Assembly (NCBI GenBank): GCA_964407105.1
Contig: CAYOUG010000001.1
Span: 230,273 to 284,280, forward strand
Direction of reading: 5' to 3'
From: an uncultured Candidatus Saccharibacteria bacterium
GTDB taxonomy: Bacteria > Patescibacteriota > Minisyncoccia > Phycocordibacterales > CALRHW01
Length of the DNA: 54,008 bases
Every line of letters begins with the position of its first letter. The stretch's first letter is position 1. Below the pieces are notes generated by a model that saw only the letters and a list, made by a program, of their open reading frames with translations, ran no database searches and was not told the DNA's origin. Made by a program: the position numbers and the translations under genes. Below, piece by piece: positions 13,616 to 48,865 of the stretch.

Positions 13616-13732
13616 AGCACATAAAACAAAATAGCTCTGGAAGGGTACGGAATTTTTACAAGCTGAAATTCCTGAAGCTCTCGCGCCGTCGCGCTCGAGA
13701 CCCCCTTCCAGAGCTATTTTGTTTTATGTGCT
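13616..13732 (-). repeat. Palindromic dispersed element, copy 1 (63-bp variant core in 27-bp perfect IR)
   Basis: AGCACATAAAACAAAATAGCTCTGGAA [core 13643-13705] TTCCAGAGCTATTTTGTTTTATGTGCT. Confidence 0.93.
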
Positions 13733-13763
13733 GTATCACCACTTTTTCGCTATACATTTCTGC

Positions 13764-13792
13764 TTGACTTATACACAATAATATGCTATTAT
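13764..13792 (+). promoter_or_regulatory. Sigma70-type promoter of ORFan 13878
   Basis: TTGACT-N17-TATTAT with TGn extension. Confidence 0.65.
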
Positions 13793-13877
13793 TAAATAAG
13801 AAATCGCTGGTTACTCTGGGGTTCCTAGAGTGGCGAAAAAGAATCTCTTCTGGTTGCGCAAGCGACAAGGAGCAGTC

Positions 13878-14381
13878 ATGCTTGATCTTTGTCTTGAATC
13901 GTTGCCAATTTATTCTCTCGTGCCCCCTACTGGAACAGAATTACCAAAGTCTGAGTGGTCTCAGTGGAAGTGGGTCAAGATGTCTGATCTTGTTGCGGCA
14001 GCGCAACAGCTTCAGCCCGAAAGGAATTGGGAAGCAAAAACTCTCGGTCAGGCCTTCGAAAGTATCAACAAGTCATCAAGTTTCTGGTACTTTCATGAGG
14101 GAAGCGCTCAGCCCGTGTTTGCTGATATTGTGATATCAGATCACAACCGCCCTCGTCGTGGCCATTGGAGTTGGTGGGGAAGTTGGACTTGGGGGGAAAG
14201 AATTCCCTTCGCAAGCCCCAACCTCTTGGTGCCTAGCGTCTGGGCAGAGCACGTGCTAACTCTCGTTAAGTGGGGAGCGGTCGAGATCGTTGTTGAGGAT
14301 ACTGGTGTGGCGCATTTCAACGTACGTGCCATCAACGGTCAGGGAGGACGCGGCAGCGTGCACGACATTCTCAAGAAGTAG
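13878..14381 (+). CDS. Trp-rich hypothetical protein (ORFan)
   Basis: ORF 13830..14381; start placed at ATG 13878 behind AAGGAG; own promoter and terminator. Confidence 0.6.
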   Translation: MLDLCLESLPIYSLVPPTGTELPKSEWSQWKWVKMSDLVAAAQQLQPERNWEAKTLGQAFESINKSSSFWYFHEGSAQPVFADIVISDHNRPRRGHWSWWGSWTWGERIPFASPNLLVPSVWAEHVLTLVKWGAVEIVVEDTGVAHFNVRAINGQGGRGSVHDILKK

Positions 14382-14390
14382 GATACACAT

Positions 14391-14436
14391 CCGCCTCAGT
14401 ACAGAAGACCGCTTCTGTACGGGGCGGTTTTCTTTT
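14391..14436 (+). terminator. Intrinsic terminator
   Basis: CCGCCTC-AGTACAGAAG...CTTCTGTAC-GGGGCGG-TTTT. Confidence 0.8.
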
Positions 14437-14524
14437 GTTTCAATTTACTATTGACACCACGTAAAAAAAGAGTATTATTGTTTTTGTTAGCGCCCTCGGG
14501 CGTTTTTTAGTAACCAAAAAAACT

Positions 14525-14704
14525 ATGAAAATTATTGATTACATCAAGGATACACGAGGAGAACTCAAGCATGTAAGCTGGCCGACACGTCGTCAAACTA
14601 TTATTTTTACTGCTATTGTGATCTTTATTTCTATTGCGACGGCACTTTTTTTAGGTTTTTTTGATTTTATCTTTACTCAAATATTACAAAAGTTTGTCAT
14701 CTAA
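14525..14704 (+). CDS. secE: Preprotein translocase subunit SecE (missing from ORF track, 59 aa)
   Basis: Manual translation MKIIDYIKDTRGELKHVSWPTRRQTIIFTAIVI...GFFDFIF; immediately upstream of nusG. Confidence 0.95.
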   Translation: MKIIDYIKDTRGELKHVSWPTRRQTIIFTAIVIFISIATALFLGFFDFIFTQILQKFVI

Positions 14705-14725
14705 ATTATTTTATATTTTAAAATT

Positions 14726-15271
14726 ATGGCACGACAAAAAATAGAGGAGGGCCGAAATTGGTATGTGATTCACACATACGCAGGATACGAAAATGCGGTG
14801 ATGCGAAACCTCAAACAACGCATCGAGTCTTTGGGCATGGAAGACAAAATTTTTAATGTTATCGTTCCTACCGAAAAGAAAATTAAAATTAAAGGGGGCA
14901 AGCGAGTAGAAGAAGAAGAGAAAATTTATCCAGGATACATTCTTGTGGATATGCTTGTAACAGACGACTCATGGTATGTCGTGCGAAACACTCCTCGCGT
15001 AACAGGCTTCGTGGGCTCCGGTGTGTATCCTGTACCTATTGATAAAAAAGAAGTTGAAGATCTTTTTAAACGAATGAATGCAGATACTGCAAAACACAAT
15101 ATCGATCTTTCTACCGAAGATACAGTGAAAATTGTAGACGGCCCATTTAAAGATCTTGAAGGAAAGGTAAGTGCAGTGGATAACGAACGTGGCAAGGTAA
15201 AGGTACTTGTGGCTATGTTTGGTCGCGAAACTCCAGTCGAGCTCGATTTCTTGCAAGTAAAGAAGATTTAA
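14726..15271 (+). CDS. nusG: Transcription termination/antitermination factor NusG
   Basis: WYVIHTYAGYE, KIYPGYILV, VVRNTPRVTGFVG, KOW VKIVDGPF, MFGRETPVEL. Confidence 0.98.
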   Translation: MARQKIEEGRNWYVIHTYAGYENAVMRNLKQRIESLGMEDKIFNVIVPTEKKIKIKGGKRVEEEEKIYPGYILVDMLVTDDSWYVVRNTPRVTGFVGSGVYPVPIDKKEVEDLFKRMNADTAKHNIDLSTEDTVKIVDGPFKDLEGKVSAVDNERGKVKVLVAMFGRETPVELDFLQVKKI

Positions 15272-15290
15272 GGTAAGGTAATTCACACAT

Positions 15291-15716
15291 ATGGCAAAGA
15301 AAATAACCAAAAAACTAAAGCTCGTTATTCCAGCAGGTAAAGCAAATCCAGCACCTCCAGTGGGTCCTGCGCTCGGACAAGCCGGTGTAAATATCGGAGA
15401 GTTTGTTAAGCGTTTTAATGATGAGACAAAAGACAAAATGGGAGACGTAATCCCAGTTGAGATTTCAGTATACGAAGACCGAACATTCTCTTTTGTTCTA
15501 AAAACTCCTCCAGCTACAAATCTTATCCTCAAAGCAATCGGTATTGAAAAAGGTTCTGGAACAAACAAAGCTAAAAAAGCCGGAAAAATCTCTAAGGCAA
15601 AAATTCGAGAGATCGCAGAAAAGAAAATGGTTGATCTTAATGCTCATGATGTGGAGGCGGCAATGAAAATTATTGCTGGGTCTGCACGGTCAATGGGTGT
15701 GGAGGTTGTTGACTAG
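15291..15716 (+). CDS. rplK: 50S ribosomal protein L11
   Basis: [36 protein letters not shown]. Confidence 0.98.
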
Positions 15717-15723
15717 GTGAAGT

Positions 15724-15840
15724 ACAAAACTCCTGTGCTATATTCCGAAAACCACGCGTCAATCGCTGGTGCGATTGCTGCTACGCTCGGCGCCGTCGCG
15801 CCTGCGCGATGCTTTTCGTAACATAGCACAGGAGTTTTGT
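15724..15840. repeat. Palindromic element, related type (18-bp perfect IR around multi-hairpin GC core)
   Basis: ACAAAACTCCTGTGCTAT...ATAGCACAGGAGTTTTGT enclosing CAATCGC-TGGT-GCGATTG and GGCGC-CGTC-GCGCC; between convergent rplK and dfr. Confidence 0.85.
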
Positions 15841-15841
15841 T

Positions 15842-16363
15842 TTACCTGCTTAAATCTACCCACAAATAACTCGGTGAAGATTCTGGGTGATCTTCTCGCC
15901 AGATTTCTTTTTTAAACTCTGCATAATCTGGGAAAAAGGCGTCGGCTTCTTTGTCGCCATCAATGAGAGTGAGATGGAGAACGTCCGCAAAAGGGAGCGC
16001 TTGATTGTAAATTTCCGCGCCACCGATGATAAAAATTTTTTGCTCGGCACCATCATTTTTTTCTTCAGCATGTTGCGTTTCAATACTTCGCGCTCGATCA
16101 AGTGCGTCTTCAAGTGACGTCGTTACAACACACCCCGGCGCCGCATAGTCTGCATTTCTAGTGATAACAATATTTGTGCGGTTGGGAAGCGGGCAGCCAA
16201 TAGATTCGTATGTTTTGCGTCCCATGATAATAGGGTGTCCGGTAGTGAGCGCTTTAAAACGCTTTAAATCCTCCGGAATTTTCCAGAGTAATTCATTGTG
16301 AAAACCAAGTCCTCGATTGTTTTTTTGAATAGCGGCAATAATATGAATTTTTGGCAATGACAT
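15842..16363 (-). CDS. folA: Dihydrofolate reductase
   Basis: GLGFHNELLWKIPEDLKRFK, IIMGRKTYESIG..LPNRTNIVITR, IFIIGGAEIY; start 16363 (alt. 16405). Confidence 0.96.
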   Translation of the reverse strand: MSLPKIHIIAAIQKNNRGLGFHNELLWKIPEDLKRFKALTTGHPIIMGRKTYESIGCPLPNRTNIVITRNADYAAPGCVVTTSLEDALDRARSIETQHAEEKNDGAEQKIFIIGGAEIYNQALPFADVLHLTLIDGDKEADAFFPDYAEFKKEIWREDHPESSPSYLWVDLSR

Positions 16364-16437
16364 TTTTGGTTTTGGTTGTAATTTGACCCACCGTAACCCC
16401 TTCATTATACTTAGGGCAATTAATAAAACCAAACCGC

Positions 16438-17031
16438 ATGTCGCATATTCTTGTAAAAAAAATTCTTGGTCCAGAGACACATTTAAAAGAGCGTTTTATT
16501 CCGGATTTTTCTACACTTTCAAAAATACTCGCCGATCTTCGAAAACAGGGAAAGAAAATTGTGCTCACGCAAGGTGTGTATGATCTCATTCACGAAGGTC
16601 ACGCACTGTATTTAGAAAAAGCAAAAGCATACGGTGATGTGCTTGTGGTGGGCGTGGATTCAGATGAGCTCACACGTGCTCGCAAGGGTCCAAACAGACC
16701 AATAGTGCCGGAGTCGGAGCGTGTCAAAATGCTTGTGCATTTGCGTCACGTAGATATTGTGACGATTCGCGAACTTAAACATGATCTTGGCGACCTCATT
16801 CGTCTGGTGAAGCCGGATGTGCTCATTACATCTTTTAGTACTGCAGATTTTACGACTGAAATGAAAAAAATGTACAAAGATTATTGCAAAAAAATTGTGA
16901 CACTTGCGCCACAGGCCACCACGTCTACCACTGCGCGCATTCGCAATCTCACGATAGAAGGTGCCGAAGAGCTTGCAAAAGAAGTACTCAAACTTACCAA
17001 CGGTTTTTTGAAAAAAATTAGAAAGATGTAA
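16438..17031 (+). CDS. Cytidylyl/adenylyltransferase family protein (RfaE-II/TagD-like)
   Basis: QGVYDLIHEGH (HxGH), LVVGVDSD, KGPNRP, C-terminal TSTT. Confidence 0.9.
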   Translation: MSHILVKKILGPETHLKERFIPDFSTLSKILADLRKQGKKIVLTQGVYDLIHEGHALYLEKAKAYGDVLVVGVDSDELTRARKGPNRPIVPESERVKMLVHLRHVDIVTIRELKHDLGDLIRLVKPDVLITSFSTADFTTEMKKMYKDYCKKIVTLAPQATTSTTARIRNLTIEGAEELAKEVLKLTNGFLKKIRKM

Positions 17032-17061
17032 CGCGGAGTAATAATTGCGAAGAATAATATA

Positions 17062-17955
17062 ATGACTAAAACTCTCATTGCATATATCCCCGCACTTCAT
17101 AGTGGCTATGTTAATTTTTTTAAAAAGTATGCGGGCGAGACTTTGTATATTTTAGATTTAAGTTTGGTGCGAGAAATTCCAAGGCTTGAGCGTGACATTC
17201 GCGCGCTTGAAGCGGGGGATATGAAAAAGCTCATTGGTGCGCTTGGAATTTTTTCACGCGTGGGGGTGGTGACGAAAGAAAATATGGCCGAGTTTTTGAT
17301 GGAGGCGCAGGGTGATACAAGAGATTCTGGCGCAAAAAATACTAACACGATCGTGATGCCGGATGAAGATGTGAGTCATATTTTTGCTGAAACATATTTA
17401 ACGGGAAAAGATATGTTTGGCGCGACAAAAGAAATTGAATATGTCTCTGTGTTTTTGCGATGGGACAGACTTGCCGCACTTAAAACTGATGTACCAACAA
17501 ACCCAGACAGAATCATTTCTCGCGACGCATTCGACAAAGAAATAATGGCTCGTGCATTTGCTGATGCACAAAAAAGTTCAGATTGGTGGCGACAGGTGGG
17601 TGCGGTGGTAGTGAAAGACGGCAAGGTGCTTTTTATAGGACACAATCATCCGTTGCCGTCTGATCAGACACACAATGTCACCGGCGATCCACGTAGCAAC
17701 TTTGACGCCGGTGTGAGTATCGAACTTTCAAAATTTTTACATGCTGAAGCGGGCATTATTGCCGAGGCTGCAAAGCGGGGCGTGACGCTCGATGGTGCCT
17801 CTATATATGTCACAACATTTCCATGTCCGGTGTGTGCAAAATCTATTGCCACTGCGGGTTTTAAAAAAGTGTATTACTGCGAAGGCTATTCGCTTCTCGA
17901 TGCGGAGGATATTTTAAAGGGGTTTGGGGTTGAGCTTATTCAGGTCGAGAGGTAA
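17062..17955 (+). CDS. dCMP deaminase/ComEB-like protein with long N-terminal extra domain
   Basis: C-terminal RQVGAVVV, HAE, PCPVC Zn motifs; N-terminal ~150 aa beginning IAYIPALHSGY. Confidence 0.9.
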   Translation: MTKTLIAYIPALHSGYVNFFKKYAGETLYILDLSLVREIPRLERDIRALEAGDMKKLIGALGIFSRVGVVTKENMAEFLMEAQGDTRDSGAKNTNTIVMPDEDVSHIFAETYLTGKDMFGATKEIEYVSVFLRWDRLAALKTDVPTNPDRIISRDAFDKEIMARAFADAQKSSDWWRQVGAVVVKDGKVLFIGHNHPLPSDQTHNVTGDPRSNFDAGVSIELSKFLHAEAGIIAEAAKRGVTLDGASIYVTTFPCPVCAKSIATAGFKKVYYCEGYSLLDAEDILKGFGVELIQVER

Positions 17956-18092
17956 AGACATGTTTGACAATATTTTTTCTTTATGTTATGAATTTATATG
18001 GAACAAGCAAGAATTTTCTTGGAACTGATACGGCAGATTTCCGAAAGTGTATGGTGGGTCTCGCACACCAACAACAAAAGAAAGGAAAAAAG

Positions 18093-18662: not shown

Positions 18663-18718
18663 AAAGGTGCACCTTCAACCTCTTGGGCCCCAGGCTTTAT
18701 CACCTGCGGTCCATTTTT

Positions 18719-19165: not shown

Positions 19166-19211
19166 GGTGTGAAATGGAAAGCGTGTAAAAATATGTAATC
19201 GTTTTTGATAA

Positions 19212-23609: not shown

Positions 23610-23673
23610 AAAGAAGATGGTTTTGGTCCATTTCTTTTTGTAAAAACCCTTAAAAGTGCTAGTATTTTGCTAT

Positions 23674-26600
23674 ATGAACGAACCAGAAAAGAAACCGGTT
23701 TCTAAAAGTCCATCTGCTCAGATTGAAGAAAAAATTCTTGCATCGTGGAAGGAAAATGATATTTTCAAAAAAACCCTTGAAAAGGAAGCTCCTCAAGGGG
23801 ACTTTGTTTTTTACGAAGGTCCTCCTACGGCCAACGGTAAGCCAGGTATTCATCATCTTGAAGCGCGTGCATTCAAAGATATTATTCCGCGATACAAAAC
23901 AATGCGTGGTTTTCATGTGACTCGAAAGGGCGGATGGGATACGCAAGGACTTCCGGTAGAGCTTCAAGTAGAAAAAAAACTAGGTTTGAAGTCTAAAAAA
24001 GAAATTGAAGCGTACGGCGTAGAAAAATTTAATGCACAGTGTAAAGAAAGTGTGTGGGAGTATGTGGATTTGTGGAAGCAATTTACAGATCGTATTGGCT
24101 ATTGGATTGATCAAGAAAATCCGTATGTGACGTATGAAAAAACATACATGGAAAGTGTTTGGAATATTTTGAAAACGGTTTCAGAGCAAAAGGTGGGTGG
24201 CGTGCTTGGTGTGGGTGGTAAGCCAATGCTCTACAAAGATTACAAAGTGGTGCCGTGGTGTCCGCGATGTGGGACGGCGCTTTCATCGCACGAGCTTGCG
24301 CAGGGGTATGAAGATGTAAAAGATTTGTCGGTGTATGTAAAATTTAAGTTGAAAAATCCAACAGAGATTGGATTATCTGGTGACGCATATTTTCTCGCGT
24401 GGACGACAACACCATGGACATTGCCTGGAAATGTAGGACTGGCGGTAGGGGAAGACACTTCATATGTGTTTGTAGAACACGAGAGTCAAATATATATTCT
24501 TGCTGAGTCTTTGTTACAAAAAATATTTAATGAAAAAGATTTTAAAAATATAAAAACTGTTTTAGGAAAAGATTTAGTGGGTTTGCAATACGAACCGCTT
24601 TTTCCATATCTTGTGCAAAAATTTGGTGATAAAAATCCTGAAGCATTTGCGCAGGCATACAAAGTGTATCCAGCGGATTTTGTGACGACGACCGACGGAA
24701 CAGGTATTGTGCACACGGCTGTGATGTATGGTCAGGAAGATTTTGAGCTGGGAACGAAAGTTGGTTTGCCAAAATTTCATCTCGTGCGCGAGGACGGACA
24801 TTTTATTGATGATATGGATTTTCTTTCAGGACGTTTTGTAAAAGAAAAAAATCAAGATGGAAAGCCGACGCTTGATGTAGATATTATTAGTGATTTAAAA
24901 ACAAGAAATCTTTTCTTCGCACAAGAAAATATAAAACATACATATCCGCATTGTTGGCGATGCAAAACGCCGCTCATCTACTACGCGCGCGATTCGTGGT
25001 ACATTCGCATGTCTGCGCTACGCGACAAACTTGTGGCAGAAAATGAAAAAATAAATTGGGAGCCGGGTCATATAAAAGAGGGGCGTTTTGGCGAGTGGTT
25101 GCGTGAGGCGAAAGATTGGGCGATTTCTCGTGAAAGATATTGGGGTACGCCACTTCCTATTTGGACAAATGAAGAAGGTAAAATGATAGTGATCGGCTCT
25201 GTTTCTGATCTTAAGACACACATTCCAAAACGTAATAATTTTATTCTTGTTCGTCATGGACAGTCAGAATCCAATGTCCAGGGTGTTATAAATTGCAATG
25301 TACACACAAAAGATTCTCTTACATCAGATGGTCTTACTCAAGCACAAAAAGCTGGTAAGATTTTGGTTAAAGAAAAAATTGACGTCATTATCACATCACC
25401 ATTTGCTCGCGCGCAAGAAACAGCAAAAATCATTGCACAAGAGATTGGTTTTTCTGGAGATATCATATCTGATGATCGTATTGGCGAACTTCAGGTGGGC
25501 GCGTGGAATGAAAAAACCTGGAGTGAATACGAAACACAATTTAAAAATCTAAAAGAACGCTTTACAAAACATCCACACGCAGAAAAGAGTGAGGGTGGGG
25601 TTGTTGAAAATTGGGAAGATGCGCGTCGACGTGTAGCGGAGTTTATGTATGATATCGACGCGCAATTTGAAGGTAAAAATATACTTTTGGTGGGTCATGG
25701 TGGCACACTTAATCTTATAGCCCTATCTTCTCTTGGATATTCTGTAGAAGAAATTGCTTTCCATTATTATGATAATTCTTTCAGCAATGCAGAGGTACGA
25801 AAAATAGATTGGCGGGCGTTGCCACACAATGCTTTGTATGAAATTGATCTACACAAACCTTTTATTGATTCTGTGGAACTTGTCGATGAAGCGGGAAACA
25901 AACTCACACGTGTAAAAGAAGTTCTTGATGTTTGGTTTGATTCTGGCGCTATGCCTTTTGCACAAAACCATTTTCCTTTTTCGAAAAATACAATGCAGTA
26001 TCCAGCAGATTTTATTTCTGAAGCGGTAGATCAGACTCGCGGATGGTTTTATACCTTACTTGCGATAGGTGTACTTATGGAAAAGGGAAGTGCTTATAAA
26101 AATGTAATTTGTCTCGGACACATTTTAGATGCACAAGGAAAAAAGATGAGTAAGTCGCTTGGAAATATTGTAGATCCTTGGATTATGATTGATAAGTATG
26201 GCGTTGATGCACTTCGACTTTGGATGTATGGCGTTAATCGACCCGGAGATTCTAAAAACTTTGATGAGCAAACTGTAGATGAGATTGTAAAAAAGGTATT
26301 TAATCCGCTCTCAAACATTTTTTCATTTTATGAAATGTATGCTGATAAGAGTGTGACATCGAGGCGCGACAGCACACATGTGCTCGACCGTTGGATATTG
26401 GCGCGCCTCGATGAACTTATTTTGCAAGGCACACGACATCTCGATGAGTTTCAGGTTTTTGAAGCGTCGCGTAGTATACGAGATTTTATTGGAGATTTTT
26501 CTACGTGGTATATTCGTCGATCACGTGACAGATTTAAGTCAGATGACATAGCAGATAAAAAAGCGTCACTTAACACAACCCACTTTGTGCTTCTATCTCT

Positions 26601-27219
26601 TGCTAAATATATGGCGCCGTTTGCACCATTTTTTGCTGAAGAACTTTATCGAAAGATGAATGGTGAGAAAGAAAGTGTACATCTTGATGCTTGGCCAGAA
26701 GTAAATGTGCAAGCTGTGGGCGATGTAATGATTCTTGAAGATATGAAAGAAGTGCGCGAACTTTCGAGTCGTGGACTTGAACTTCGCAATACTGCCGGCA
26801 TAAAAGTGCGTCAACCTCTTTCAAAATTTACAATTAAAAGTGCGCGTCTAGAAGGCCGAAATGATCTACTTTCTCTTGTTGCAGAAGAGTTGAATGTTAA
26901 AGAGGTAGTATTTGATGCTTCACTTGAAAATGAAGCACAACTCGACACCACTCTTACTGAAGCACTTAAAACAGAAGGACGATATCGTGAGGTTGTGCGA
27001 GCGGTACAGGATTTGCGCAAAAAAACAGGTTTAGAACCTCATGATTCTGCTAGGCTTCTAGTGAAAACCAACGCCGAAGGTAAATCATTAATTGAGCAAT
27101 ACAAAAAAGATCTTTCTTCAACATCTCTTCTAAAAGAAATTGTGTATCAAGAAGTAGGGGGGGATACATTTTCTGTTGATAATCTCTCGTTTGTATTTGT
27201 TGTTGAAAAAATAGTTTAA
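23674..27219 (+). CDS. ileS: Isoleucine--tRNA ligase (type 2) with inserted histidine-phosphatase domain
   Basis: EGPPTANGKPGIHH, GWDTQGLPVE, AWTTTPWTLPGN, DWAISRERYWGTP, DQTRGWF, KMSKS; extra RHG...GHGG domain ~25231-25830. Confidence 0.96.
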   Translation: MNEPEKKPVSKSPSAQIEEKILASWKENDIFKKTLEKEAPQGDFVFYEGPPTANGKPGIHHLEARAFKDIIPRYKTMRGFHVTRKGGWDTQGLPVELQVEKKLGLKSKKEIEAYGVEKFNAQCKESVWEYVDLWKQFTDRIGYWIDQENPYVTYEKTYMESVWNILKTVSEQKVGGVLGVGGKPMLYKDYKVVPWCPRCGTALSSHELAQGYEDVKDLSVYVKFKLKNPTEIGLSGDAYFLAWTTTPWTLPGNVGLAVGEDTSYVFVEHESQIYILAESLLQKIFNEKDFKNIKTVLGKDLVGLQYEPLFPYLVQKFGDKNPEAFAQAYKVYPADFVTTTDGTGIVHTAVMYGQEDFELGTKVGLPKFHLVREDGHFIDDMDFLSGRFVKEKNQDGKPTLDVDIISDLKTRNLFFAQENIKHTYPHCWRCKTPLIYYARDSWYIRMSALRDKLVAENEKINWEPGHIKEGRFGEWLREAKDWAISRERYWGTPLPIWTNEEGKMIVIGSVSDLKTHIPKRNNFILVRHGQSESNVQGVINCNVHTKDSLTSDGLTQAQKAGKILVKEKIDVIITSPFARAQETAKIIAQEIGFSGDIISDDRIGELQVGAWNEKTWSEYETQFKNLKERFTKHPHAEKSEGGVVENWEDARRRVAEFMYDIDAQFEGKNILLVGHGGTLNLIALSSLGYSVEEIAFHYYDNSFSNAEVRKIDWRALPHNALYEIDLHKPFIDSVELVDEAGNKLTRVKEVLDVWFDSGAMPFAQNHFPFSKNTMQYPADFISEAVDQTRGWFYTLLAIGVLMEKGSAYKNVICLGHILDAQGKKMSKSLGNIVDPWIMIDKYGVDALRLWMYGVNRPGDSKNFDEQTVDEIVKKVFNPLSNIFSFYEMYADKSVTSRRDSTHVLDRWILARLDELILQGTRHLDEFQVFEASRSIRDFIGDFSTWYIRRSRDRFKSDDIADKKASLNTTHFVLLSLAKYMAPFAPFFAEELYRKMNGEKESVHLDAWPEVNVQAVGDVMILEDMKEVRELSSRGLELRNTAGIKVRQPLSKFTIKSARLEGRNDLLSLVAEELNVKEVVFDASLENEAQLDTTLTEALKTEGRYREVVRAVQDLRKKTGLEPHDSARLLVKTNAEGKSLIEQYKKDLSSTSLLKEIVYQEVGGDTFSVDNLSFVFVVEKIV

Positions 27220-29835: not shown

Positions 29836-31143
29836 ATGAAAAAAGGTGAAAATGACACAATGGAGAAAATAGTATCGCTTTGTAAAAGACGTGGTTTTAT
29901 ATACCAAGGTTCTGAAATATATGGTGGTCTTGCTGGTACGTGGGATTATGGTCCGCTTGGTGTGGCACTTAAAAATAATATTAAAAATCTTTGGTGGAAG
30001 AAATTTGTAACTGACCGTATCGATATGTATGGTGTAGACACAGCTCTTCTTATGAATCAGGCTGTATGGAAAGCGAGTGGTCATGTGGGTGGTTTTTCTG
30101 ATCCACTTATTGAGTGTAAAAAATGTAAAAAACGTTTTCGCACAGATCATCTTGAAGATAAAAAGAAATGTCCTGAATGTGGCGGTGAGCTTGGAGAGGA
30201 GCGTCAATTTAACATGATGTTTAAAACTCAGGTGGGTGCGACTGAAGACGAAAGCTCGGTATCTTATTTTCGTCCAGAAACAGCACAGGGTATGTTTGTA
30301 AATTTTAAAAATGTACTTGATTCTTTCCATCCAAAACTTCCTTTCGGTTTAGCACAAATAGGAAAGGCGTTTCGAAATGAAATCGCTCCACGTGATTTTA
30401 TTTTTCGTGCACGCGAGTTTGAACTAATGGAAATAGAATATTTCGTGCGCGAAAAAGATTGGGAAATGGAGTTTGAGTATTGGCGAAAAGAAATGCTTGA
30501 ATGGATTAAACTTATGGGTCTTTCAGAAAACAAGGTCCATGAGCTTGAAGTGGAAACAAAAGATCTTGCTCATTATTCAAAACGAACGATTGATTTTGAA
30601 TATGAATTTCCTTTTGGCAAAAAAGAGCTTTACGGTCTTGCTTATCGTACGGATTTTGATTTGCAAAAACACACTTCTGCAAGCGGCGTAGATATTACAT
30701 ATTTTGACGAAGAAACAAAAGAACATTTTACACCACACGTAATAGAACCAACTTTTGGAATTGAACGCACAGTGCTTGCCGTAATTGCTGAAGCGTATAC
30801 AGAAGATGAAATGGGTGGGGAATTGAGAACATATCTTAAACTTCCATCACATCTTGCACCAATAAAAATTGCCGTTTTCCCACTTCTTAAAAATAAGCCA
30901 CAGCTTGTAGAAAAAGCGAAAGAGGTTTTTGTGGCATTGAAGAAAAAATATGAAAATGTTGTGTTTGATGATAATGGAAATATTGGTAAAAGATATCGAA
31001 GACAAGATGAGATAGGTACACCGTTTTGCGTTACTGTTGATTTTGATACTCTTGAAGATGACACGGTGACTGTGCGAAATAGAGATACGGGGGAGCAGGA
31101 GCGGGTAGCGGTTGCGGATTTATTAAAAACACTTGTAATATAA
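29836..31143 (+). CDS. glyQS: Glycine--tRNA ligase (homodimeric GlyRS-1)
   Basis: EIYGGLAGTWDYGPLG, RPETAQG, GKAFRNEI, RTDFDL, IGKRYRRQDEIGTPFC. Confidence 0.97.
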   Translation: MKKGENDTMEKIVSLCKRRGFIYQGSEIYGGLAGTWDYGPLGVALKNNIKNLWWKKFVTDRIDMYGVDTALLMNQAVWKASGHVGGFSDPLIECKKCKKRFRTDHLEDKKKCPECGGELGEERQFNMMFKTQVGATEDESSVSYFRPETAQGMFVNFKNVLDSFHPKLPFGLAQIGKAFRNEIAPRDFIFRAREFELMEIEYFVREKDWEMEFEYWRKEMLEWIKLMGLSENKVHELEVETKDLAHYSKRTIDFEYEFPFGKKELYGLAYRTDFDLQKHTSASGVDITYFDEETKEHFTPHVIEPTFGIERTVLAVIAEAYTEDEMGGELRTYLKLPSHLAPIKIAVFPLLKNKPQLVEKAKEVFVALKKKYENVVFDDNGNIGKRYRRQDEIGTPFCVTVDFDTLEDDTVTVRNRDTGEQERVAVADLLKTLVI

Positions 31144-31256
31144 AAACATTTGAAATTTGTCTTTCGGAGGGGGTCTCGAGCGCGACGGCGCGAGAGCTTC
31201 AGGATTTTTTAAGCTTCAAAAAATCCGTACCCGGAGAAAGACAAATTTCAAATGTT
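31144..31256 (+). repeat. Palindromic dispersed element, copy 2 (64-bp core in 20-bp IR)
   Basis: AAACATTTGAAATTTGTCTT [core 31169-31232] AAGACAAATTTCAAATGTTT. Confidence 0.95.
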
Positions 31257-31267
31257 TCTCAAAATAC

Positions 31268-37231: not shown

Positions 37232-37337
37232 AAAACAAAAACACCTTGGAAAGGGGGTCTCGAGCGCGACGGCGCGAGAGCTTCAGGATTTTTTAAGCTT
37301 CAAAAAATCCGTACCCTTTCCAAGGTGTTTTTGTTTT
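37232..37337 (+). repeat. Palindromic dispersed element, copy 3 (64-bp core in 21-bp IR)
   Basis: AAAACAAAAACACCTTGGAAA [core 37253-37316] TTTCCAAGGTGTTTTTGTTTT; between convergent rpsR and efp. Confidence 0.95.
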
Positions 37338-42756: not shown

Positions 42757-42759
42757 TCG

Positions 42760-42789
42760 TTGACTTTTAGCCTATTTTTAGCATATAAT
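42760..42789 (+). promoter_or_regulatory. Near-consensus sigma70 promoter heading the long S-layer leader
   Basis: TTGACT-N18-TATAAT. Confidence 0.6.
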
Positions 42790-43340
42790 CGCTTGGCCTG
42801 GTTGGAGATAGCTTAGGTTATCCCCAGCCGTTGTTTTGCAGGTTATTTAAGGAAAAGGTACTATGTACATTATACGTAACCAGTAGTGTTGACATAGTGT
42901 CAAATACTACTGATTGTGTATGTTTCCGAGTGTAAGAATAACGGCTGTTTTGCGTCTCATTACAGGAAGACAGACCAGGTATTGATCGTTGACAATTTCA
43001 TATACAAAAAAGAGAGATTTATGTGCGTATAGGATGCTGTACGACTTTTTACTTATATGGAAGTATGACTGAAAATCAGACCAAATTTCTATAACTAGCC
43101 CGCCGCCTTGCGTCGGTTTACCTCCGAGTCTACTTTGTTGGACGAAGAGTCTAAATTAAGGTGGTGGTTAGTGGAAGGATTCATAAACAAGAAATTGTTT
43201 ATGAATCAAACACTTGTATTAATAAACGTTAATTAATACGAATATTAATACAAGTGTGTGCATTACATTATAAAAAATAATTTCTTTTCCTGAATACATT
43301 ATTAATAATTAAGGAAAAGATGTTCATTATTAAATACAAT

Positions 43341-45323
43341 ATGTTTAAAACATCAAAAACTGCACGAGTTTTTGCAGGAGTTGTTGGTATCGCGATGGTT
43401 GTTGTTGCTTTTGGCGCATTTGTTGCACCAGTAAAGGCAGAAACGACTGATCTCGCAGCACTTCAAGCACTAGTTGCTTCATTGCAAGCTCAGATTGCAG
43501 CATTATCAGGCGGATCAAGTTCTACAGTTTCTGGATCAGCTCCTATGTCTCCCCTTACAGAAGGAAGCTCAGGTGCTGAAGTTACAAAACTTCAGAATTT
43601 CTTGATCTCAAAAGGCTTTGGCATTTCAGCTGGAGCTACAGGATTCTTTGGTGGTCAAACAAAGGCGGCTCTTGCGGCTTTCCAAGCAGCAAACGGAGTT
43701 TCACCTGCAGTTGGTTACTACGGTTCAGTTACAATGGCTAAAGTTGCATCAATGATGACAACTACAACCACTACAACTACAACCACAACTACAACCACAC
43801 CAGGTCCTACAACACTTGAAGGAACAGATGGTTCAATTTCTGACGTAAATGTTCTTTCACAATACTCAAACGAGGAAGTGGGAGATGCAGAATCAGATGT
43901 AAAAGTTGCTGGATTTGAAGTTGAAGCTTCAAAAGATGGAGACATTATGTTGAAATCTGTAAAACTTCATTTTGCTGGAGCATCAAATTCTGGCTCAACA
44001 AAATTGGCTGATTATGTAGATTCAGTATCTGTATGGATGGGATCAACAAAGATCGCTACTGTAGATGTATCTGACTTCAACAAAGACAGTACAGGAGTAT
44101 ACACAAAAACAGCTACATTAAAGAGTGGTGTTGTTGTAAAAGCTGATACCACAGAAAAGTTTTACATTACTGTAGATGCTATTAGTAATCTCGATTCAAA
44201 TGATATTACTGGAGATGCATGGACCGTTGATGTTGACAATATCCGATACGAAGATGGATCAGGTGTAACAACAACTGATACTGATTCAGGAGATGTTAAC
44301 GCTATGAACGTTTCGATAAACTTTGTAAGCTTCTCAACATCTGCTAACACAGAATTGAAGTTCTCTACAGATTCATCAAACAATCCTGATGCTGGTGTTA
44401 TCGTTGTCGATGATACAGACAATACAGACGGAGTTGTTCTAATGGCTGGTAAGATCAAAGTGGAAGGAACATCAGATGTGTGGATGGATGCATTACCAGT
44501 TACCTTTGTAACTACCGGTGGTGCAAATCTTTCTGCTGTTACTGGATCAGTAACATTGAATATCGGTGGTGAAGAATATTCAGAGACCACTGGCGCAAAC
44601 TGTAGTCCAACTTGTGCTTCAAACACAACAGCTACAGTAACATTCGATAATCTTGATTTCACAATGGATGCTGGAAAAACTGTAAGTTTTACAGTTTCTG
44701 CTGACATCAATGATATTGACGCTGGAAATCTTGATGAAGGAGATACTTTGGCTGCTTCTATTACTACAAACAACCGAAATTACATTGATGCGGAAAATTC
44801 AGAGGGTGATCAGTTGTCTGATTCTACAGAGAAATCTGGAACAGTTACTGGTAATGCTCAAATATTCCGAACAAGTGGAATTCAGTTGGAGTTTGTTGAT
44901 GCAACTGAAGATGCTACTGTTGGTACAAGTGCAAATGATGACGTGGGATTGTTTACAATCAAATTTAAAGTAACAGCTATTGGAGACACAGTTTATATTG
45001 CTTCAGCTGTTGCAAACGGTGCTACTTATTCTGTTGACAAGAGTGGAACAGCTACAACTGCAAACTCAATTACAGCAGCATTTGTAAATAATTCTGACAC
45101 TGATTTGACAACTACATACGGTCTATGGGAGATCGAAGAAGGTTCAAGTGAAACACTTACACTTTCTGTAAGCGTTCCATTGGGAGCAGGAGGTACATCA
45201 GGACAGTATCGCGCAGCTCTTACGGGAGTATTGTGGGGTACAAATTCTGCTGATGCTCAACCAGACAATACTTACTCATCAAATCTCGATACGTTCAAGA
45301 CCTCTTACATGGTTCTTAACTAA
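43341..45323 (+). CDS. S-layer-like secreted protein with peptidoglycan-binding domain and poly-Thr linker
   Basis: Signal peptide (VKA/E), LQALVASLQAQIAAL coil, LTEGSSGAEVTKLQNFL...FFGGQTKAALAAFQ PG-binding domain, Thr14, then T/S/D/V-rich beta domains. Confidence 0.8.
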   Translation: MFKTSKTARVFAGVVGIAMVVVAFGAFVAPVKAETTDLAALQALVASLQAQIAALSGGSSSTVSGSAPMSPLTEGSSGAEVTKLQNFLISKGFGISAGATGFFGGQTKAALAAFQAANGVSPAVGYYGSVTMAKVASMMTTTTTTTTTTTTTTPGPTTLEGTDGSISDVNVLSQYSNEEVGDAESDVKVAGFEVEASKDGDIMLKSVKLHFAGASNSGSTKLADYVDSVSVWMGSTKIATVDVSDFNKDSTGVYTKTATLKSGVVVKADTTEKFYITVDAISNLDSNDITGDAWTVDVDNIRYEDGSGVTTTDTDSGDVNAMNVSINFVSFSTSANTELKFSTDSSNNPDAGVIVVDDTDNTDGVVLMAGKIKVEGTSDVWMDALPVTFVTTGGANLSAVTGSVTLNIGGEEYSETTGANCSPTCASNTTATVTFDNLDFTMDAGKTVSFTVSADINDIDAGNLDEGDTLAASITTNNRNYIDAENSEGDQLSDSTEKSGTVTGNAQIFRTSGIQLEFVDATEDATVGTSANDDVGLFTIKFKVTAIGDTVYIASAVANGATYSVDKSGTATTANSITAAFVNNSDTDLTTTYGLWEIEEGSSETLTLSVSVPLGAGGTSGQYRAALTGVLWGTNSADAQPDNTYSSNLDTFKTSYMVLN

Positions 45324-45352
45324 TCTTGGTTTGACAGCGTAAGCTGTTGACT

Positions 45353-45390
45353 AAAACAAAAACCGCCCTTTATGGGGCGGTTTTTGTTTT
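45353..45390 (+). terminator. Strong intrinsic terminator
   Basis: AAAACAAAAACCGCCC-TTTATG-GGGCGGTTTTTGTTTT. Confidence 0.88.
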
Positions 45391-45428
45391 GCTTGAAAAA
45401 CTCATACATTTGAGATAATCTGTAGCAT

Positions 45429-47426
45429 ATGAATAAAGATATTAAACAGTCGTGGTTTTCACAAATTGCTCAATACGTGATGTACGTTTTTTTTGTTTTA
45501 TTTCCTTTTACTAATACCTCATATTTTTTGTATGGAGGCACCTCCGTAAGATCTATTGCACTGATATTGATAATGGACATTTTAATGGTTCTTTTTGCCG
45601 TGTGGATATTTAAAAAAGATCAAAACATAACTATTCCAAAATCATGGATTTTTTTGTCTTTGGTTATTTATTTTGTTTCCATGACGATATCTAGTTTTTT
45701 TGGTTTAAATTTTTCTGTCTCATTTTGGTCCGCGGTTACTCGCACATCTGGGCTATGGTATCTTTTTCATCTCGGTGCATTTTTGTATGTGTTGTGGATT
45801 CTTTTATCAAATCCAAAAAGACACAACACTTTTATTTTGCTAATTATTGCTTCAACATCATTATTTTCATTACTAGCCTTTTTTGGTCCAGAGGGTTTGG
45901 GTTGGCTTTTTAAGGGTTATAAAAGTGATGGATTTACTTTTGGAAACTCTTCTTTTGCGGCGATGTATATTTTCGGTGCATTTCTCTTGTCTCTTTATTA
46001 TATTTTTCAAGCCGAAAGTAAAAAGTGGTGGATGTATGTTTTCCCTTTGTTACTAATTATTAATCCATATGTAATAGATAACCATATTTGGTTTGGAGAT
46101 TTTTCTAGAATTATAGGAGAAGCTAGACTTTCTACTTTTGTAATGGTTTTAGCGACAGTTGGGCTTTTGATGTTTTGGCTCATTTCTAAAATAAAAAATA
46201 AAAAAACATTTTCTAAAGTATCTTACGGTGTTTTTGGTGTTTATGTAATTGGTGTGGTAATTTGTTCTATTTCACTGCTTTCTTCTGATGGTTTTTTAAG
46301 AAAAGAATATTTGAATCAAGCTACCGCGGCGCGTCCACTCGTGTGGGCAATTTCTGAAAAAGCAATTTCAGATCGTCCACTTTTGGGTTGGGGATCAGAT
46401 AATTTTGAGCGAGTATTTGAAAAATATTACGATAATCGTTTGCTTGAAGAAACGTATGGAAGTGAGGCGTGGTTTGATAGATCACACAATATTTTTCTAG
46501 AACAAATAGTTAACAATGGATTTATTGGCCTCACTTTCTATTTATTGGTGTATATTGTTATTTTAATTTCTCTTTTGTATGTTTTTGTAAACACAACAGA
46601 TAAAAAAGATAGAATTTTTGCTTCAATACTTTTTGTATATTTTTCCCTTCATCTTGCTGAATTACAAACTGTATTTGATACAACGATTTCTTATACCATG
46701 CTTGGCTTTATGTTTGTGTCGGCTGTGGTTTTGTATGGGCGTACACGTGCACAAAAAACAGGTAAATCACAAGAAATAGTTATCGGTGGCATACCGAAAT
46801 ATATAATTTCTGTTGCGGTAATCTTTTTTTGCTTTTGGTCACTTGTGTGGGGAGTAATTCCATTTGTTCGCGCACAAAATGTAAATGGGTATATTAGAAC
46901 TATTGGTTTTGCAGAAAAACGTATACCTTTTTATCCCGTATTGTTTTCTTCCCCCGTCGATTTACATGCTTTCTTGTGGAGAACTTCTACAGATTTTGAG
47001 CGTGGGATATCAGAGAATCCAAAAATATTAACAGACGGCACAAAGGTTACAAACTTAAAAAAAGAGGTGCTGATTTTTGAAAATGAGTACCGCCTTTTTG
47101 TAGCAAATAACCCAACACACTTTAGAGCAAAATTAAGTTTTGCAGATATTCTTATATACCAAGCTCTTTTTGGAGAAAATAAACTAGAGGAAGCACAAAA
47201 GGTTCTTGATGAAGCCATTGTTCTTGTGCCCACAAGTCCACAGCCATATTGGATGAAAGCGGTAGCTTATCTTTATATGAAAAAATTTGATTTGGCGAAG
47301 GAAAATGCTAAAAAAGGTTTAGCTATAAATCCAAACATAGAATATAGCAAGATGATACTAGAATATGTTGAATCATCAATCAAAACATTTCCAGAAATTA
47401 ATCTGTTCTTTTTCAGACTTATTTAA
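45429..47426 (+). CDS. O-antigen-ligase-like (Wzy_C / O-oligosaccharyltransferase-like) membrane protein with C-terminal TPR
   Basis: Many TMs; ARPLVWAISEKAISDRPLLGWGSDNF, FDRSHNIFLEQIVNNGFIG; TPR-like EEAQKVLDEAIVLVP...YWMKAVAY. Confidence 0.88.
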   Translation: MNKDIKQSWFSQIAQYVMYVFFVLFPFTNTSYFLYGGTSVRSIALILIMDILMVLFAVWIFKKDQNITIPKSWIFLSLVIYFVSMTISSFFGLNFSVSFWSAVTRTSGLWYLFHLGAFLYVLWILLSNPKRHNTFILLIIASTSLFSLLAFFGPEGLGWLFKGYKSDGFTFGNSSFAAMYIFGAFLLSLYYIFQAESKKWWMYVFPLLLIINPYVIDNHIWFGDFSRIIGEARLSTFVMVLATVGLLMFWLISKIKNKKTFSKVSYGVFGVYVIGVVICSISLLSSDGFLRKEYLNQATAARPLVWAISEKAISDRPLLGWGSDNFERVFEKYYDNRLLEETYGSEAWFDRSHNIFLEQIVNNGFIGLTFYLLVYIVILISLLYVFVNTTDKKDRIFASILFVYFSLHLAELQTVFDTTISYTMLGFMFVSAVVLYGRTRAQKTGKSQEIVIGGIPKYIISVAVIFFCFWSLVWGVIPFVRAQNVNGYIRTIGFAEKRIPFYPVLFSSPVDLHAFLWRTSTDFERGISENPKILTDGTKVTNLKKEVLIFENEYRLFVANNPTHFRAKLSFADILIYQALFGENKLEEAQKVLDEAIVLVPTSPQPYWMKAVAYLYMKKFDLAKENAKKGLAINPNIEYSKMILEYVESSIKTFPEINLFFFRLI

Positions 47427-47452
47427 ATATTAAGTCGTGGTAAAGTATATAT

Positions 47453-47674
47453 ATGCTTAAATACTTCGATAAAACATTCTTTAAATTTCTTGTTGGTTTT
47501 GTGAGTGTGCTTGCTATTAGTTTTTCTATTATGATCATTACCAATTATCTTGCAAAATATTATTATCAAGATTTAAGTGCAAATTCTGCTAGTGTTTTTA
47601 ATGATATGTATAGTTCTATAGAATTTTCAGCAGATGATGTAGCGACAGTTCAGAATGCTTCATTGGGACGTTAA
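47453..47674 (+). CDS. Small single-TM hypothetical protein
   Basis: KTFFKFLVGFVSVLAISFSIMII; TGG-TAAAGT 6 nt upstream of ATG. Confidence 0.5.
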   Translation: MLKYFDKTFFKFLVGFVSVLAISFSIMIITNYLAKYYYQDLSANSASVFNDMYSSIEFSADDVATVQNASLGR

Positions 47675-47731
47675 AAAAGTATTACGTTTTTTTGTTGACA
47701 CTAACACCTTCTCCTGATAACATCTCTCTCA

Positions 47732-47786
47732 TAAGGTCAAAGACAATAGGCAAACAATAAGCCCTATCGAGACACTCTTTACCTTG
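47732..47786 (+). promoter_or_regulatory. L10 leader (ribosomal protein autoregulatory RNA)
   Basis: AAGGT...AAAGACAATAGG-CAAACAATAAG-CCCTATCGAGAC...ACCTT upstream of rplJ, matching the AGAC..AGG..CCU..GAGA layout; TTGACA-N17-TAACAT promoter upstream. Confidence 0.6.
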
Positions 47787-47840
47787 TGGGTCGATGTTCG
47801 TTTACTAAGAAATATATACAAGTATTTAGTACTTGATGTT

Positions 47841-48335
47841 ATGGCTATATCAAAACAAAAGAAAAAAGAAGTTCTGGACAATCTCTCAGGGATTGTAAAA
47901 GACTCTGCGTCGGTGGTGTTTGTAAACTTTCACGGCTTGCCGATGAATGATACAACGACACTTCGAAAAGCACTTCACGAAAAAGAAGTAGGGTATACAG
48001 TTGCTAAAAAAACGCTTACTCGAAAAGTTTTTAGTGAAGCGAAAATAGAAGGAGAAATGCCGGAGCTTACGGGGGAGCTTGCTGTGGTGTATGGAAAAGA
48101 TATGGTAGCACCAGCTCGTGAGATCTATGCATTTCAAAAGAAATTTGATAATAAAATATCTATTCTTGGTGGTGTTTTTGAGGGAAAATATATGGACAAA
48201 GCAGGTATGCTTGCTGTTGCACAAATTCCTTCTCTTGATGTACTACGTGGAATGTTTGTAAATATTATCAATTCACCAATTCAAAGATTGGTAGTGTCTC
48301 TATCTGAGATAGCAAAAAAAAGCATAATTAATTAA
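47841..48335 (+). CDS. rplJ: 50S ribosomal protein L10
   Basis: [38 protein letters not shown]. Confidence 0.96.
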
Positions 48336-48349
48336 ATAATTTTATTAAC

Positions 48350-48739
48350 ATGGAAGAAACAAAAGTTGAAGTTCCTGCAAAATTCAAAAGCATTGTAGAA
48401 AATATCGAAACGATGTCTGTTCTTGATTTGCATGAGCTTGTGAAAGTGTTTGAGGCAAAGTTTGGTGTTTCAGCGTCAGCAGTAGCGGCTCCCGCAGCTG
48501 GTGCGGCGGCAGGTGCTGCAGAAGAGAAGTCTTCATTTAATGTACACCTTGTAGACAGCGGTGCTCAAAAGATTGCTGTTATAAAAGTTGTAAAAGAAGT
48601 TCTCGGTCTTGGTCTAAAGGAAGCAAAGGATCTTGTGGATGCGGCTCCTTCTGTACTTAAGGAGGGAATGAAAAAAGAAGATGCCGATGCTTTCAAAAAG
48701 AAAGTTGAAGAGGCTGGTGGAAAGGTGGAGTTGAAATAA
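48350..48739 (+). CDS. rplL: 50S ribosomal protein L7/L12
   Basis: [47 protein letters not shown]. Confidence 0.98.
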
Positions 48740-48749
48740 GGTTATATAG

Positions 48750-48865
48750 AAAACAAAACAAAAACACCTTGGAAAGGGTACGGATTTTTTGAAGCTTAAA
48801 AAATCCTGAAGCTCTCGCGCCGTCGCGCTCGAGACCCCCTTTCCAAGGTGTTTTTGTTTTGTTTT
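48750..48865 (-). repeat. Palindromic dispersed element, copy 4 (inverted, identical to copy 3 over ~105 bp)
   Basis: AAAACAAAACAAAAACACCTTGGAAA [core 48776-48839] TTTCCAAGGTGTTTTTGTTTTGTTTT. Confidence 0.95.

Follow-up and report, generated by a model that had tools for sequence, protein, structure and literature searches.

A palindromic repeat family of Patescibacteria with a conserved branched core and locus-specific inverted arms at gene ends

A 54,008-nt stretch of a 284-kb source contig from an uncultured Candidatus Saccharibacteria bacterium (the window; all positions are those of the whole stretch) contains five copies of a palindromic repeat, a core of two hairpins set inside long inverted arms. 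A preliminary description of the window had taken the repeat for a dispersed family, probably with many more copies elsewhere in the genome, and had not recognised it as a described one. Wider searches agree on both counts. A covariance model (R1) found 98 copies in 79 loci (593 kb) from many Patescibacteria genomes, up to five of them per 8 kb, and the family appears to be undescribed within what was searchable; its kind, the palindromic extragenic repeat, is known. The reading preferred here, with a probability of about one half, is that of a non-autonomous mobile palindromic repeat family of Patescibacteria that makes bidirectional terminator-like hairpins, similar to repetitive extragenic palindromes (REP), enterobacterial repetitive intergenic consensus sequences (ERIC) and miniature inverted-repeat transposable elements (MITE). 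It is based on the patchy distribution of the repeat, filled and empty orthologous sites, different subtypes at one site, near-identical copies within a genome, and modest copy numbers.

In an exact search of the window, the 64-nt core was found without a mismatch at three sites (copies 2, 3 and 4, Table 1), with no match in 100 shuffles. Copy 1 has a 63-nt variant of the core in which the changes are confined to hairpin B (GGAATTT/AAATTCC) and the pairing is kept. Exact search and alignment thus repeat what the preliminary description had reported for these four sites. The perfect inverted arms of copies 1, 2, 3 and 4 are 30, 22, 24 and 29 nt long. That a perfect inverted repeat encloses each of these cores was correctly described; the length given for it, 20-27 bp, is replaced by 22-30 bp, a figure that includes GGG/CCC, which can be assigned to arm or core and was placed in the core before. 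Copies 3 and 4, earlier said to share their arms, have 116 nt in common at 97%, whole arms included. The position just after a stop codon was also seen again, with 0-11 nt from the stop codon to the start of each copy. A fifth, divergent copy was found with the covariance model at 15742-15822 on the minus strand (21.9 bits, E=3.3e-4).

Core and arms together fold into a three-way junction, with z-scores of -7 to -11 on either strand for the window copies. The three helices are a variable long stem (P1), a GC hairpin (hairpin A, P2) and an AU hairpin (hairpin B, P3). P1 is formed by the arms; its final two to three pairs (GG/CC) are conserved across copies, and an internal loop is frequent in it, with AA facing GGC/GAC or GGA facing GGA. 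P2 starts with a G·U pair, then a G-C/U pair and a bulged U. A 3-bp stem follows, then a symmetric tandem G·A/A·G, and the hairpin ends in a 4-bp GC stem with a GACG loop, which is G(A/U)CG in the family as a whole. Three bases, UCA, join P2 to P3, which has 9 bp and a conserved AGC in its loop, and GUA closes the junction. The alignment also shows conserved flanking bases, GGGG(U) and GU(A/G)CC, and a conserved GT(A/G)C motif beside hairpin B. Hairpins A (GC-rich, with the tandem G·A) and B (AU-rich, with the AGC loop) are unrelated in sequence.

Several other readings of the structure were tried and dropped. A hammerhead lacks the required CUGAUGA/GAAA; a K-turn does not fit, the tandem G·A being a symmetric 2x2 loop with no adjacent 3-nt bulge; and a tRNA-like fold does not fit a hairpin B of 9 bp with no T-loop consensus. 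A synthetic or artefactual origin (there are XhoI, HindIII and BsaI sites in the core) is excluded by covarying copies in more than 70 independent assemblies.

Sequence changes within the family follow the structure. In a MAFFT alignment of 54 copies, the hand-drawn structure was better than all 500 shuffles on every measure. In a model-guided alignment of 57 copies, divergent ones included, double changes were seen at all 28 pairs and 92% of cells pair, compared to 67% after shuffling and 39-60% with the partner slid, the alignment having been fitted to the covariance model. Among copies not selected via the 20-mer of hairpin A, the stems of this hairpin were swapped (GGCU/AGCC, UGGC..GCCA, CAC/GUG, CGU/ACG, UUU/AAA), with the tandem G·A (GA/AG) and the G(A/U)CG loop retained.

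The changes are also asymmetric between strands. Mismatches in the arms are 42:13 in favour of the G·U type over the A·C type (38:13 in unique contexts, p=6e-4), and the excess has the same sign in every gene context. In the core, G19·U45 is found in 47 of the 54 copies, and the partner of G20 is C in 26 copies and U in 23. On the opposite strand these pairs would be A·C and U·C mismatches, which makes the strand written in the preliminary description the folding strand. From sequence alone, a single folding strand would fit RNA or single-stranded DNA alike, and it is consistent with recognition in a single-stranded form. Conservation of a one-strand fold in turn points to a specific partner that reads the core in that form.

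The family was first gathered with the exact hairpin A 20-mer, which inflates the apparent conservation of hairpin A. This 20-mer matched 99 loci in a collection of species-representative genomes. About three-quarters of these were Patescibacteria with the same architecture, in assemblies labelled Nomurabacteria, Paceibacterota, Adlerbacteria, Yonathbacteria, Yanofskybacteria and 'Saccharibacteria'; the rest were chance matches in GC-rich genomes. None of the 20-mer loci had DNA similarity to the window outside the element. Many of the copies found with the covariance model lack the exact 20-mer. The family was found in dozens of Patescibacteria assemblies, and its density, where it is present, is 1-5 copies per 8 kb. 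Counts over loci are not phylogenetically independent.

Elsewhere the family is near-absent, over ca. 1.5 Mb of related loci. The covariance model gave two matches in 479 kb around the glycyl-tRNA synthetase (GlyRS) genes of relatives and nine, mostly weak, in 1.02 Mb around FtsK genes. In 367 kb of Nomurabacteria-like loci there were 16 matches. The 20-mer had no match in phage contigs. At gathering threshold, Rfam matched the tRNAs and the 23S rRNA of the window and not the element; at permissive thresholds there were only generic long-hairpin (miRNA-precursor-like) matches, far below threshold. No description was found in the literature on the core sequence or on MITE, REP or REPIN (REP doublets) in Patescibacteria. 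The breadth of the family across Patescibacteria is unusual, as is the combination of a conserved branched centre with perfect locus-specific arms.

Some copies are more elaborate. Those at L016:2-138, L016:3653-3797, L016:978-1108 and L011:34-181 (L numbers denote loci) have either a fourth helix, placed between the two hairpins, or additional GC hairpins nested within the hairpin B loop. Larger variants in L001, L018, L086, L094, L185:11672-11872 and L186:10675-10890 have a conserved, imperfectly paired outer module around the arms, A(A/C)TCGTCGAAGGC ... GCCGAGAAAGA(G/A)T, which suggests a longer composite element. L001 was considered as the end of an insertion sequence (IS) and rejected; hairpin A occurs there without the 3' half of the element, as a truncated copy. 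A different palindromic repeat, with several copies per 8 kb and arms GGAGCGCGGACGGCTCGTCCGC, was found in Pyrinomonadaceae (Acidobacteria; L029:4340-4465 and L038:5020-5145), and its core opens with a 20-mer identical to that of hairpin A.

Sixteen cross-species pairs of loci have the element in both members and homologous flanks on both sides (64-87% nucleotide identity). The core is 94-100% identical in orthologous pairs of the same subtype. The arms are 30-90% identical, yet complementarity within each pair is retained. The core is flipped relative to its flanks in 7 of the 16 pairs, and at some orthologous sites the subtypes of the core differ. In one pair, hairpin B has undergone a compensatory change (GGCGA/UCGCC versus GCCGA/UCGGC).

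Other orthologous sites are empty. The locus L229 is filled with ca. 145 nt of arms and core; in L217, L248 and L258 the same genes are 2 nt apart with no hairpin. In L107 and L109, 15-17 nt separate glyS from the M16 peptidase gene, where the window has the 114-nt element. One tail-to-tail gene pair was compared in 72 species. In 36 of these the spacer is at most 31 nt, and the stop codons often overlap by 8 nt; in 9-11 species the element, found in either orientation, lies precisely between stop codons that are unchanged; and about 25 have simple hairpins or other GC-rich multi-hairpin core families in A/T-rich arms. Gene ends in these genomes are thus hot spots for several palindromic element families, this one among them. 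The preliminary description had set an ancient duplication, carried by all orthologous loci, against mobility. Filled and empty orthologous sites were found instead, and together with the patchy distribution and the polymorphism between strains they support mobility.

The other core families at the tail-to-tail site lie near 3200-3450 of the locus (L268, L271, L277, L276, L282, L285, L305, L297, L290, L312, L315, L319 and L288). Examples are CCCTCTCC..GGAGAGGG types and CTGGCGAACAAAACGAAGCCAG types.

Two origins had been proposed for the arms – an element that targets terminator loops, or one that regenerates symmetric arms on insertion – and the evidence on each is anecdotal and divided. A solo hairpin in one strain (X2, below) and A/T palindromic spacers at empty sites favour the first. 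The comparison of L186 with L185 favours the second, the right distal arm of L186 (GCATTTTGTAG) being an inverted copy of the left flank, which is also found in the empty ortholog. The arms of L229 have no counterpart in the empty site, which contradicts both. A target-site repeat of TGT is possible for L229 against its empty sites and a TTTCT-like one for L186 against L185; neither is consistent. Within subfamilies the recurrent arm sequence is limited to the proximal 8-12 nt (AATGTTTTT.., AAACTTTTT.., CCTTGGAAAGGG), and the outer arms are locus-specific.

The closest relatives of the window genome have only 74-76% protein identity to it, and the window proteins were singleton clusters in protein clustering; at this distance, clean empty sites for the window's own copies could come from sequencing runs alone. 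Three runs (X2, X3 and X4) contain strains a few percent diverged from the window, whose alleles were inferred from contig joints and not from retrieved sequence. Short-read assemblies break at these gene ends, and Logan contigs end within the core. Copy 2 has the same arms in all three strains with the core in opposite orientation. Copy 3 has lost its core in X2 (on a 14.7-kb contig) and in a contig of X4, where 37247 is joined to 37314 with ACC between. The loss is of 63-66 nt, or a clean deletion of 63 nt when read against a flipped copy 4, and what is left consists of ACCCCC, the end of a flipped core, and the inner arm. The resulting allele is a plain 16-bp solo hairpin with an 11-nt loop. 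Because copies 3 and 4 have their whole arms in common and X2 has an intact copy 4, this allele is taken for a flipped copy that lost its core secondarily, and not for a site that was never occupied. In the interval from copy 1 to copy 5, an ORF (open reading frame) at 13830-14381 (183 aa, no Pfam match) is lost or replaced in all three strains (window 13806-14464), and contig joints link arms of copy 1 to arms of copy 5, which suggests a rearrangement between the two copies. Next to copy 2, the last ca. 15 nt of the GlyRS gene (31128-31143) differ in X2 and X3, where the reading frame appears to enter the arm of the element and to have its stop codon there.

Across the family, nearly all copies lie between the ends of genes, and many are placed precisely between one stop codon and another. 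With genes called in this analysis from simple codon statistics, 27 copies are in convergent, 44 in co-directional and 6 in divergent contexts. In co-directional contexts the folding strand is antisense to the flanking genes by 33:11. A T tract (at least 6 T in 8) is found at the outer ends of the arms in ca. 50% of copies in each direction, compared to 12% of random windows. The stems of 20-36 bp, AU-rich and capped by a 58-nt junction, are atypically long for an intrinsic terminator. A metatranscriptome includes contigs with the core, one of which extends into the downstream gene; the data are unstranded and could include DNA contamination, and any transcription strand proposed for the element would be conjectural.

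The same genome has plain perfect palindromic A-tract/T-tract hairpins without a core at gene ends, at 7859-7903 (21 bp), 45353-45390 (16 bp), 6368-6394, 43178-43207 and 52280-52317, with stems of 11-21 bp and loops of 3-10 nt. The hairpin at 45353 has AAAACAAAAAC in common with the arms of copies 3 and 4. After an MscS-like gene, at 50435-50533, there is a 36-bp perfect inverted repeat with a 27-nt loop that holds a small GC hairpin (AGCGCTTCGCT); its layout is like that of the element and its core is unrelated.

A mobilising enzyme was sought in the 54-kb window and in 8-kb pieces of other genomes, not in whole genomes. No transposase, integrase or HUH protein (a nuclease with a histidine-hydrophobic-histidine motif) was found among the 50 of 60 predicted window ORFs that were scanned against Pfam, in keeping with the preliminary description, which had seen no transposase. 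The proteins identified include RecA, RecO, RuvX, FtsK, TatD and PilM/PilN. In the 79 loci (ca. 600 kb) no gene family, Y1/HUH included, recurs next to copies. The largest cluster of neighbouring genes encodes Cys-rich proteins of ca. 550 aa with repeated CxxC motifs (in L012, L013, L016, L021, L023, L024, L040 and L057); this family was rejected as a partner of the element, not being consistently adjacent to copies. Two window ORFs that each lie just downstream of a copy (13830-14381 and 48909-49529) were also rejected as element-associated genes, being unrelated to each other and without a Pfam match. The MITE-like traits that were found are small size, multiple copies and presence or absence at orthologous sites. 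No parent IS sharing the arm termini was found in these sequences, and no fixed tetra- or pentanucleotide was seen just outside the element, where the flanks are variable.

The repeat has likenesses to several known systems. REP and the larger units built from them, bacterial interspersed mosaic elements (BIME) and REPIN, which in proteobacteria are mobilised by REP-associated tyrosine transposases (RAYT), are also short, GC-rich, non-autonomous extragenic hairpin repeats after genes and between convergent genes (see PMC3733652). Like the present repeat, they occur in both orientations and have a species-dependent copy number, and they are transcribed within 3' untranslated regions. Unlike them, the present repeat has two unrelated hairpins in a three-way junction inside long locus-specific arms, no GTAG or CGTC tag at the foot, no inverted doublets and no RAYT in view; its core is nearly identical across orders, whereas the REP consensus is species-specific. 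ERIC, also called intergenic repeat units (IRU), and Correia elements (CREE) are bacterial MITEs, imperfect palindromes of 100-150 bp in transcribed intergenic regions that form long hairpins in mRNA. They share with the present repeat presence or absence at orthologous sites and occurrence in either orientation, and they can act as terminators or RNase targets; no transposase is known for ERIC. In MITEs, however, conservation is at the termini and the interior varies. The present repeat has a conserved centre and outer arms that differ from locus to locus but are perfectly complementary, and it showed neither a TA duplication of the target nor any other consistent one.

Bidirectional intrinsic terminators have the same palindrome of A-tract, stem and T-tract straight after stop codons, and the core-deleted allele of X2 is such a hairpin. 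The intact element differs from them in its 20-36-bp AU-rich stems and in a 58-nt junction cap in place of a 3-8-nt loop, and termination by it is predicted only. In the minute inversions of hairpin loops in non-coding chloroplast DNA and the flip/flop of the inverted terminal repeat of adeno-associated virus (AAV), a loop or branched tip within inverted arms likewise occurs in both orientations among close relatives. The T-shaped AAV repeat is a long stem capped by two small hairpins. Those, however, are single-locus hairpins or viral replication origins nicked by Rep, while the present repeat is a dispersed chromosomal family. The ends of IS200/IS605 elements and of their ORF-less derivatives, palindrome-associated transposable elements (PATE), have subterminal hairpins that are recognised on a single DNA strand, and they lack terminal inverted repeats and target duplications. 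The present repeat resembles them in its apparent strand specificity and in showing no clear case of either. Their end hairpins are alike, flank an ORF or its remnant and insert 3' of a fixed tetranucleotide; neither of these features was seen here.

If the family is a mobile repeat, the copied unit would be the Y-shaped core of ca. 58 nt with a short, subfamily-specific proximal part of the arms. Its landing sites would be very short A/T-rich spacers at the ends of genes, in many cases right between two stop codons, where the inverted arms would fold DNA and transcript into a long hairpin capped by the GC-rich three-way junction. With T-rich tracts on both sides, as in about half of the copies, this would be a ready-made bidirectional terminator-like hairpin. 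The core would be read on one strand, as single-stranded DNA or RNA, by a putative partner acting in trans, which would explain the conserved tandem G·A, loop, junction bases and G·U pairs. After insertion, template switching within the hairpin or recombination between the arms may keep the arms complementary and flip the core. Either process would produce the flips and the perfect arms, and neither of these needs a dedicated enzyme. Quasipalindrome correction in E. coli and the minute loop inversions in chloroplast DNA are examples of such processes.

Several results weigh against a mobile repeat. No transposase was found in the window ORFs scanned or next to copies in the 79 loci, no clear conserved terminal inverted repeats beyond ca. 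10 nt and no consistent target-site duplication, and copy numbers are modest, from a handful to tens per genome. The 33:11 antisense bias is explained by no simple model. Terminator activity is a prediction, for which the RNA evidence consists of the unstranded metatranscriptome contigs. Some orthologous loci keep the element across deep divergence, which a selfish-element view alone does not predict, and a core that is 94-100% identical where the flanks are 66-87% identical, with compensatory changes in arms and hairpin B, looks like purifying selection on the locus for a host function and not like the decay of dead copies.

These last points make a host function of the RNA a serious rival, although a clearly less probable one than a mobile repeat. 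The element could be a structured RNA module that acts in cis at transcript 3' ends – as cap or folding nucleus for AU-rich terminator stems, as 3'-end protection, or as a processing or protein-binding site – and that is kept by selection and spread by recombination or gene conversion. It is to be taken seriously because the element persists for long at some orthologous sites with compensatory evolution, and because the core is extremely conserved across lineages, near-invariant between species whose flanking genes are 66-87% identical. Covariation in all helices, the conserved non-Watson-Crick features and the one-strand G·U bias in all contexts would also be expected of such a module, as would the strict placement at gene ends with T tracts, the core in metatranscriptome contigs and the lack of a transposase in 50 window ORFs and 79 loci. 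Set against this, most related genomes and most orthologous sites lack the element, which is therefore dispensable. Its orientation to genes flips freely, and its folding strand is antisense to the mRNA more often than not. The same sites are also taken by palindromic families unrelated to it, and it has no relative in Rfam.

A more specific form of the mobile reading, doubtful as a whole, is that of a portable terminator. Here a factor found throughout Patescibacteria would recognise the Y-shaped core on one strand and insert it at the apex or centre of A/T-rich palindromes at gene ends, and one flank would be copied in inverted form, on insertion or soon after, to give perfect locus-specific arms. 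If true, this would be an inverted rather than a direct target duplication, by a mechanism of transposition or templated repair not described for bacterial repeats.

In the mechanism put forward in the preliminary description, the hairpins would be recognised by an HUH tyrosine transposase (RAYT or IS200/IS605 TnpA), which would mobilise the element as single-stranded DNA in the way of REP, REPIN and PATE. This is unlikely. Recognition does appear to be specific to strand and structure, and the element is small and hairpin-based, with a conserved GT(A/G)C motif beside hairpin B and neither family-wide terminal inverted repeats nor a clear target duplication. The 2013 survey of REP distinguished GTAG- and CGTC-tagged palindromes, and CGTC REP likewise have no known transposase (PMC3733652). 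The protein search described above turned up no Y1/HUH gene, however, and hairpins A and B are unrelated, while IS200/605 ends and REPIN halves are alike. The alignment has no GTAG or CGTC tag at the foot of a hairpin; CGTC occurs only in the loop of hairpin A, on the opposite strand. Copies are single except for one adjacent inverted pair (L097, 1524-1614 and 1644-1728), in place of an arrangement in inverted doublets. No positive evidence for this mechanism was found, and two features that define families of that kind were looked for and are lacking.

Most improbable is a DNA uptake or recombination signal, in which the core would serve these pilus-bearing, nucleotide-scavenging bacteria as a tag that their competence machinery prefers and would spread by biased uptake and homologous replacement, as are the DNA uptake sequence (DUS) and uptake signal sequence (USS) pairs at terminators of Neisseria and Haemophilus: conservation of sequence and not just structure across distant lineages, both orientations, the location at terminators, the absence of any need for a transposase, and PilM/PilN, RecA and RecO in the window would agree with it, but the unit of ca. 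60 nt occurs about once per 10 kb, versus 9-12 bp about once per kb for known, duplex-read uptake sequences, and a duplex signal would not need the single-strand features (G·U, tandem G·A, covariation).

In the window, copy 1 lies after the end of a SIMPL/DUF541 gene and before the ORF at 13830-14381, and copy 5 lies between rplK, which it follows, and a convergent DHFR gene. Copy 2 begins straight after the stop codon of glyS, upstream of the M16 peptidase gene. Copy 4, which is also present in strain X2, is 10 nt past the stop codon of rplL.

Table 1. Copies of the repeat in the window and the parts of copy 3
Feature	Position	Strand	Description
Copy 1	13616-13732	(-)	perfect 30-bp arms 13616-13645/13703-13732; variant core 13643-13705 (63 nt); covariance model 82.8 bits
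Copy 5	15724-15840	(-)	31-nt arms, 90% complementary; hairpin A GCAGGCGCGACGGCGCCGAGC, hairpin B GCAATCGCACCAGCGATTG
Copy 2	31144-31257	(+)	perfect 22-bp arms 31144-31165/31236-31257; GGA/GGA internal loop; core 31169-31232
Copy 3	37232-37337	(+)	between convergent rpsR and efp; core 37253-37316
Copy 3, left arm (P1, 5' strand)	37232-37255	(+)	partner 37314-37337
Copy 3, hairpin A (P2)	37256-37282	(+)	basal G·U and G-C pairs, bulged U, CUC/GAG, tandem G·A, GCGC/GCGC
Copy 3, details of hairpin A	37262-63 x 37276-77; 37268-37271	(+)	tandem G·A; loop GACG
Copy 3, hairpin B (P3)	37286-37310	(+)	AU-rich 9-bp stem; loop AAGCUUC 37295-37301
Copy 3, junction bases	37283-85; 37311-13	(+)	UCA; GUA; either side of hairpin B
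Copy 3, right arm (P1, 3' strand)	37314-37337	(+)	followed by T-rich tract
Copy 4	48750-48865	(-)	perfect 29-bp arms 48750-48778/48837-48865; core 48776-48839

Three other features of the window were seen. A 23S rRNA gene starts at 52810-54008 with no 16S rRNA gene in the 52 kb upstream, which suggests that the rRNA genes are not linked. An IleRS-like class I tRNA synthetase (23656-27219, 1187 aa) has a His_Phos_1 histidine-phosphatase domain (residues 530-719) inserted in its catalytic domain. A 21-nt periodic repeat of the GATGATGC type is found at 8448-8829, within an ORF for a peptidoglycan-binding/DUF4398 protein (7967-8899).

Patescibacteria account for a large part of bacterial diversity, and their tiny genomes are believed to be poor in mobile elements and in recognisable regulatory RNAs. 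The repeat provides a marker of recent genome dynamics in them, through its flips, deletions and the rearrangements between strains, and is a candidate ligand of a putative nucleic-acid-binding protein or mobilising enzyme. A conserved centre with perfect locus-specific arms is unusual among bacterial repeats, and if the arms are generated on insertion the mechanism would be a new one. The repeat also gives a handle on the limits of transcription units: in many orthologous gene pairs the stop codons overlap, and there is a terminator only if such an element is there. If it is a portable terminator, it would provide terminators in compact genomes where tail-to-tail genes overlap without it.

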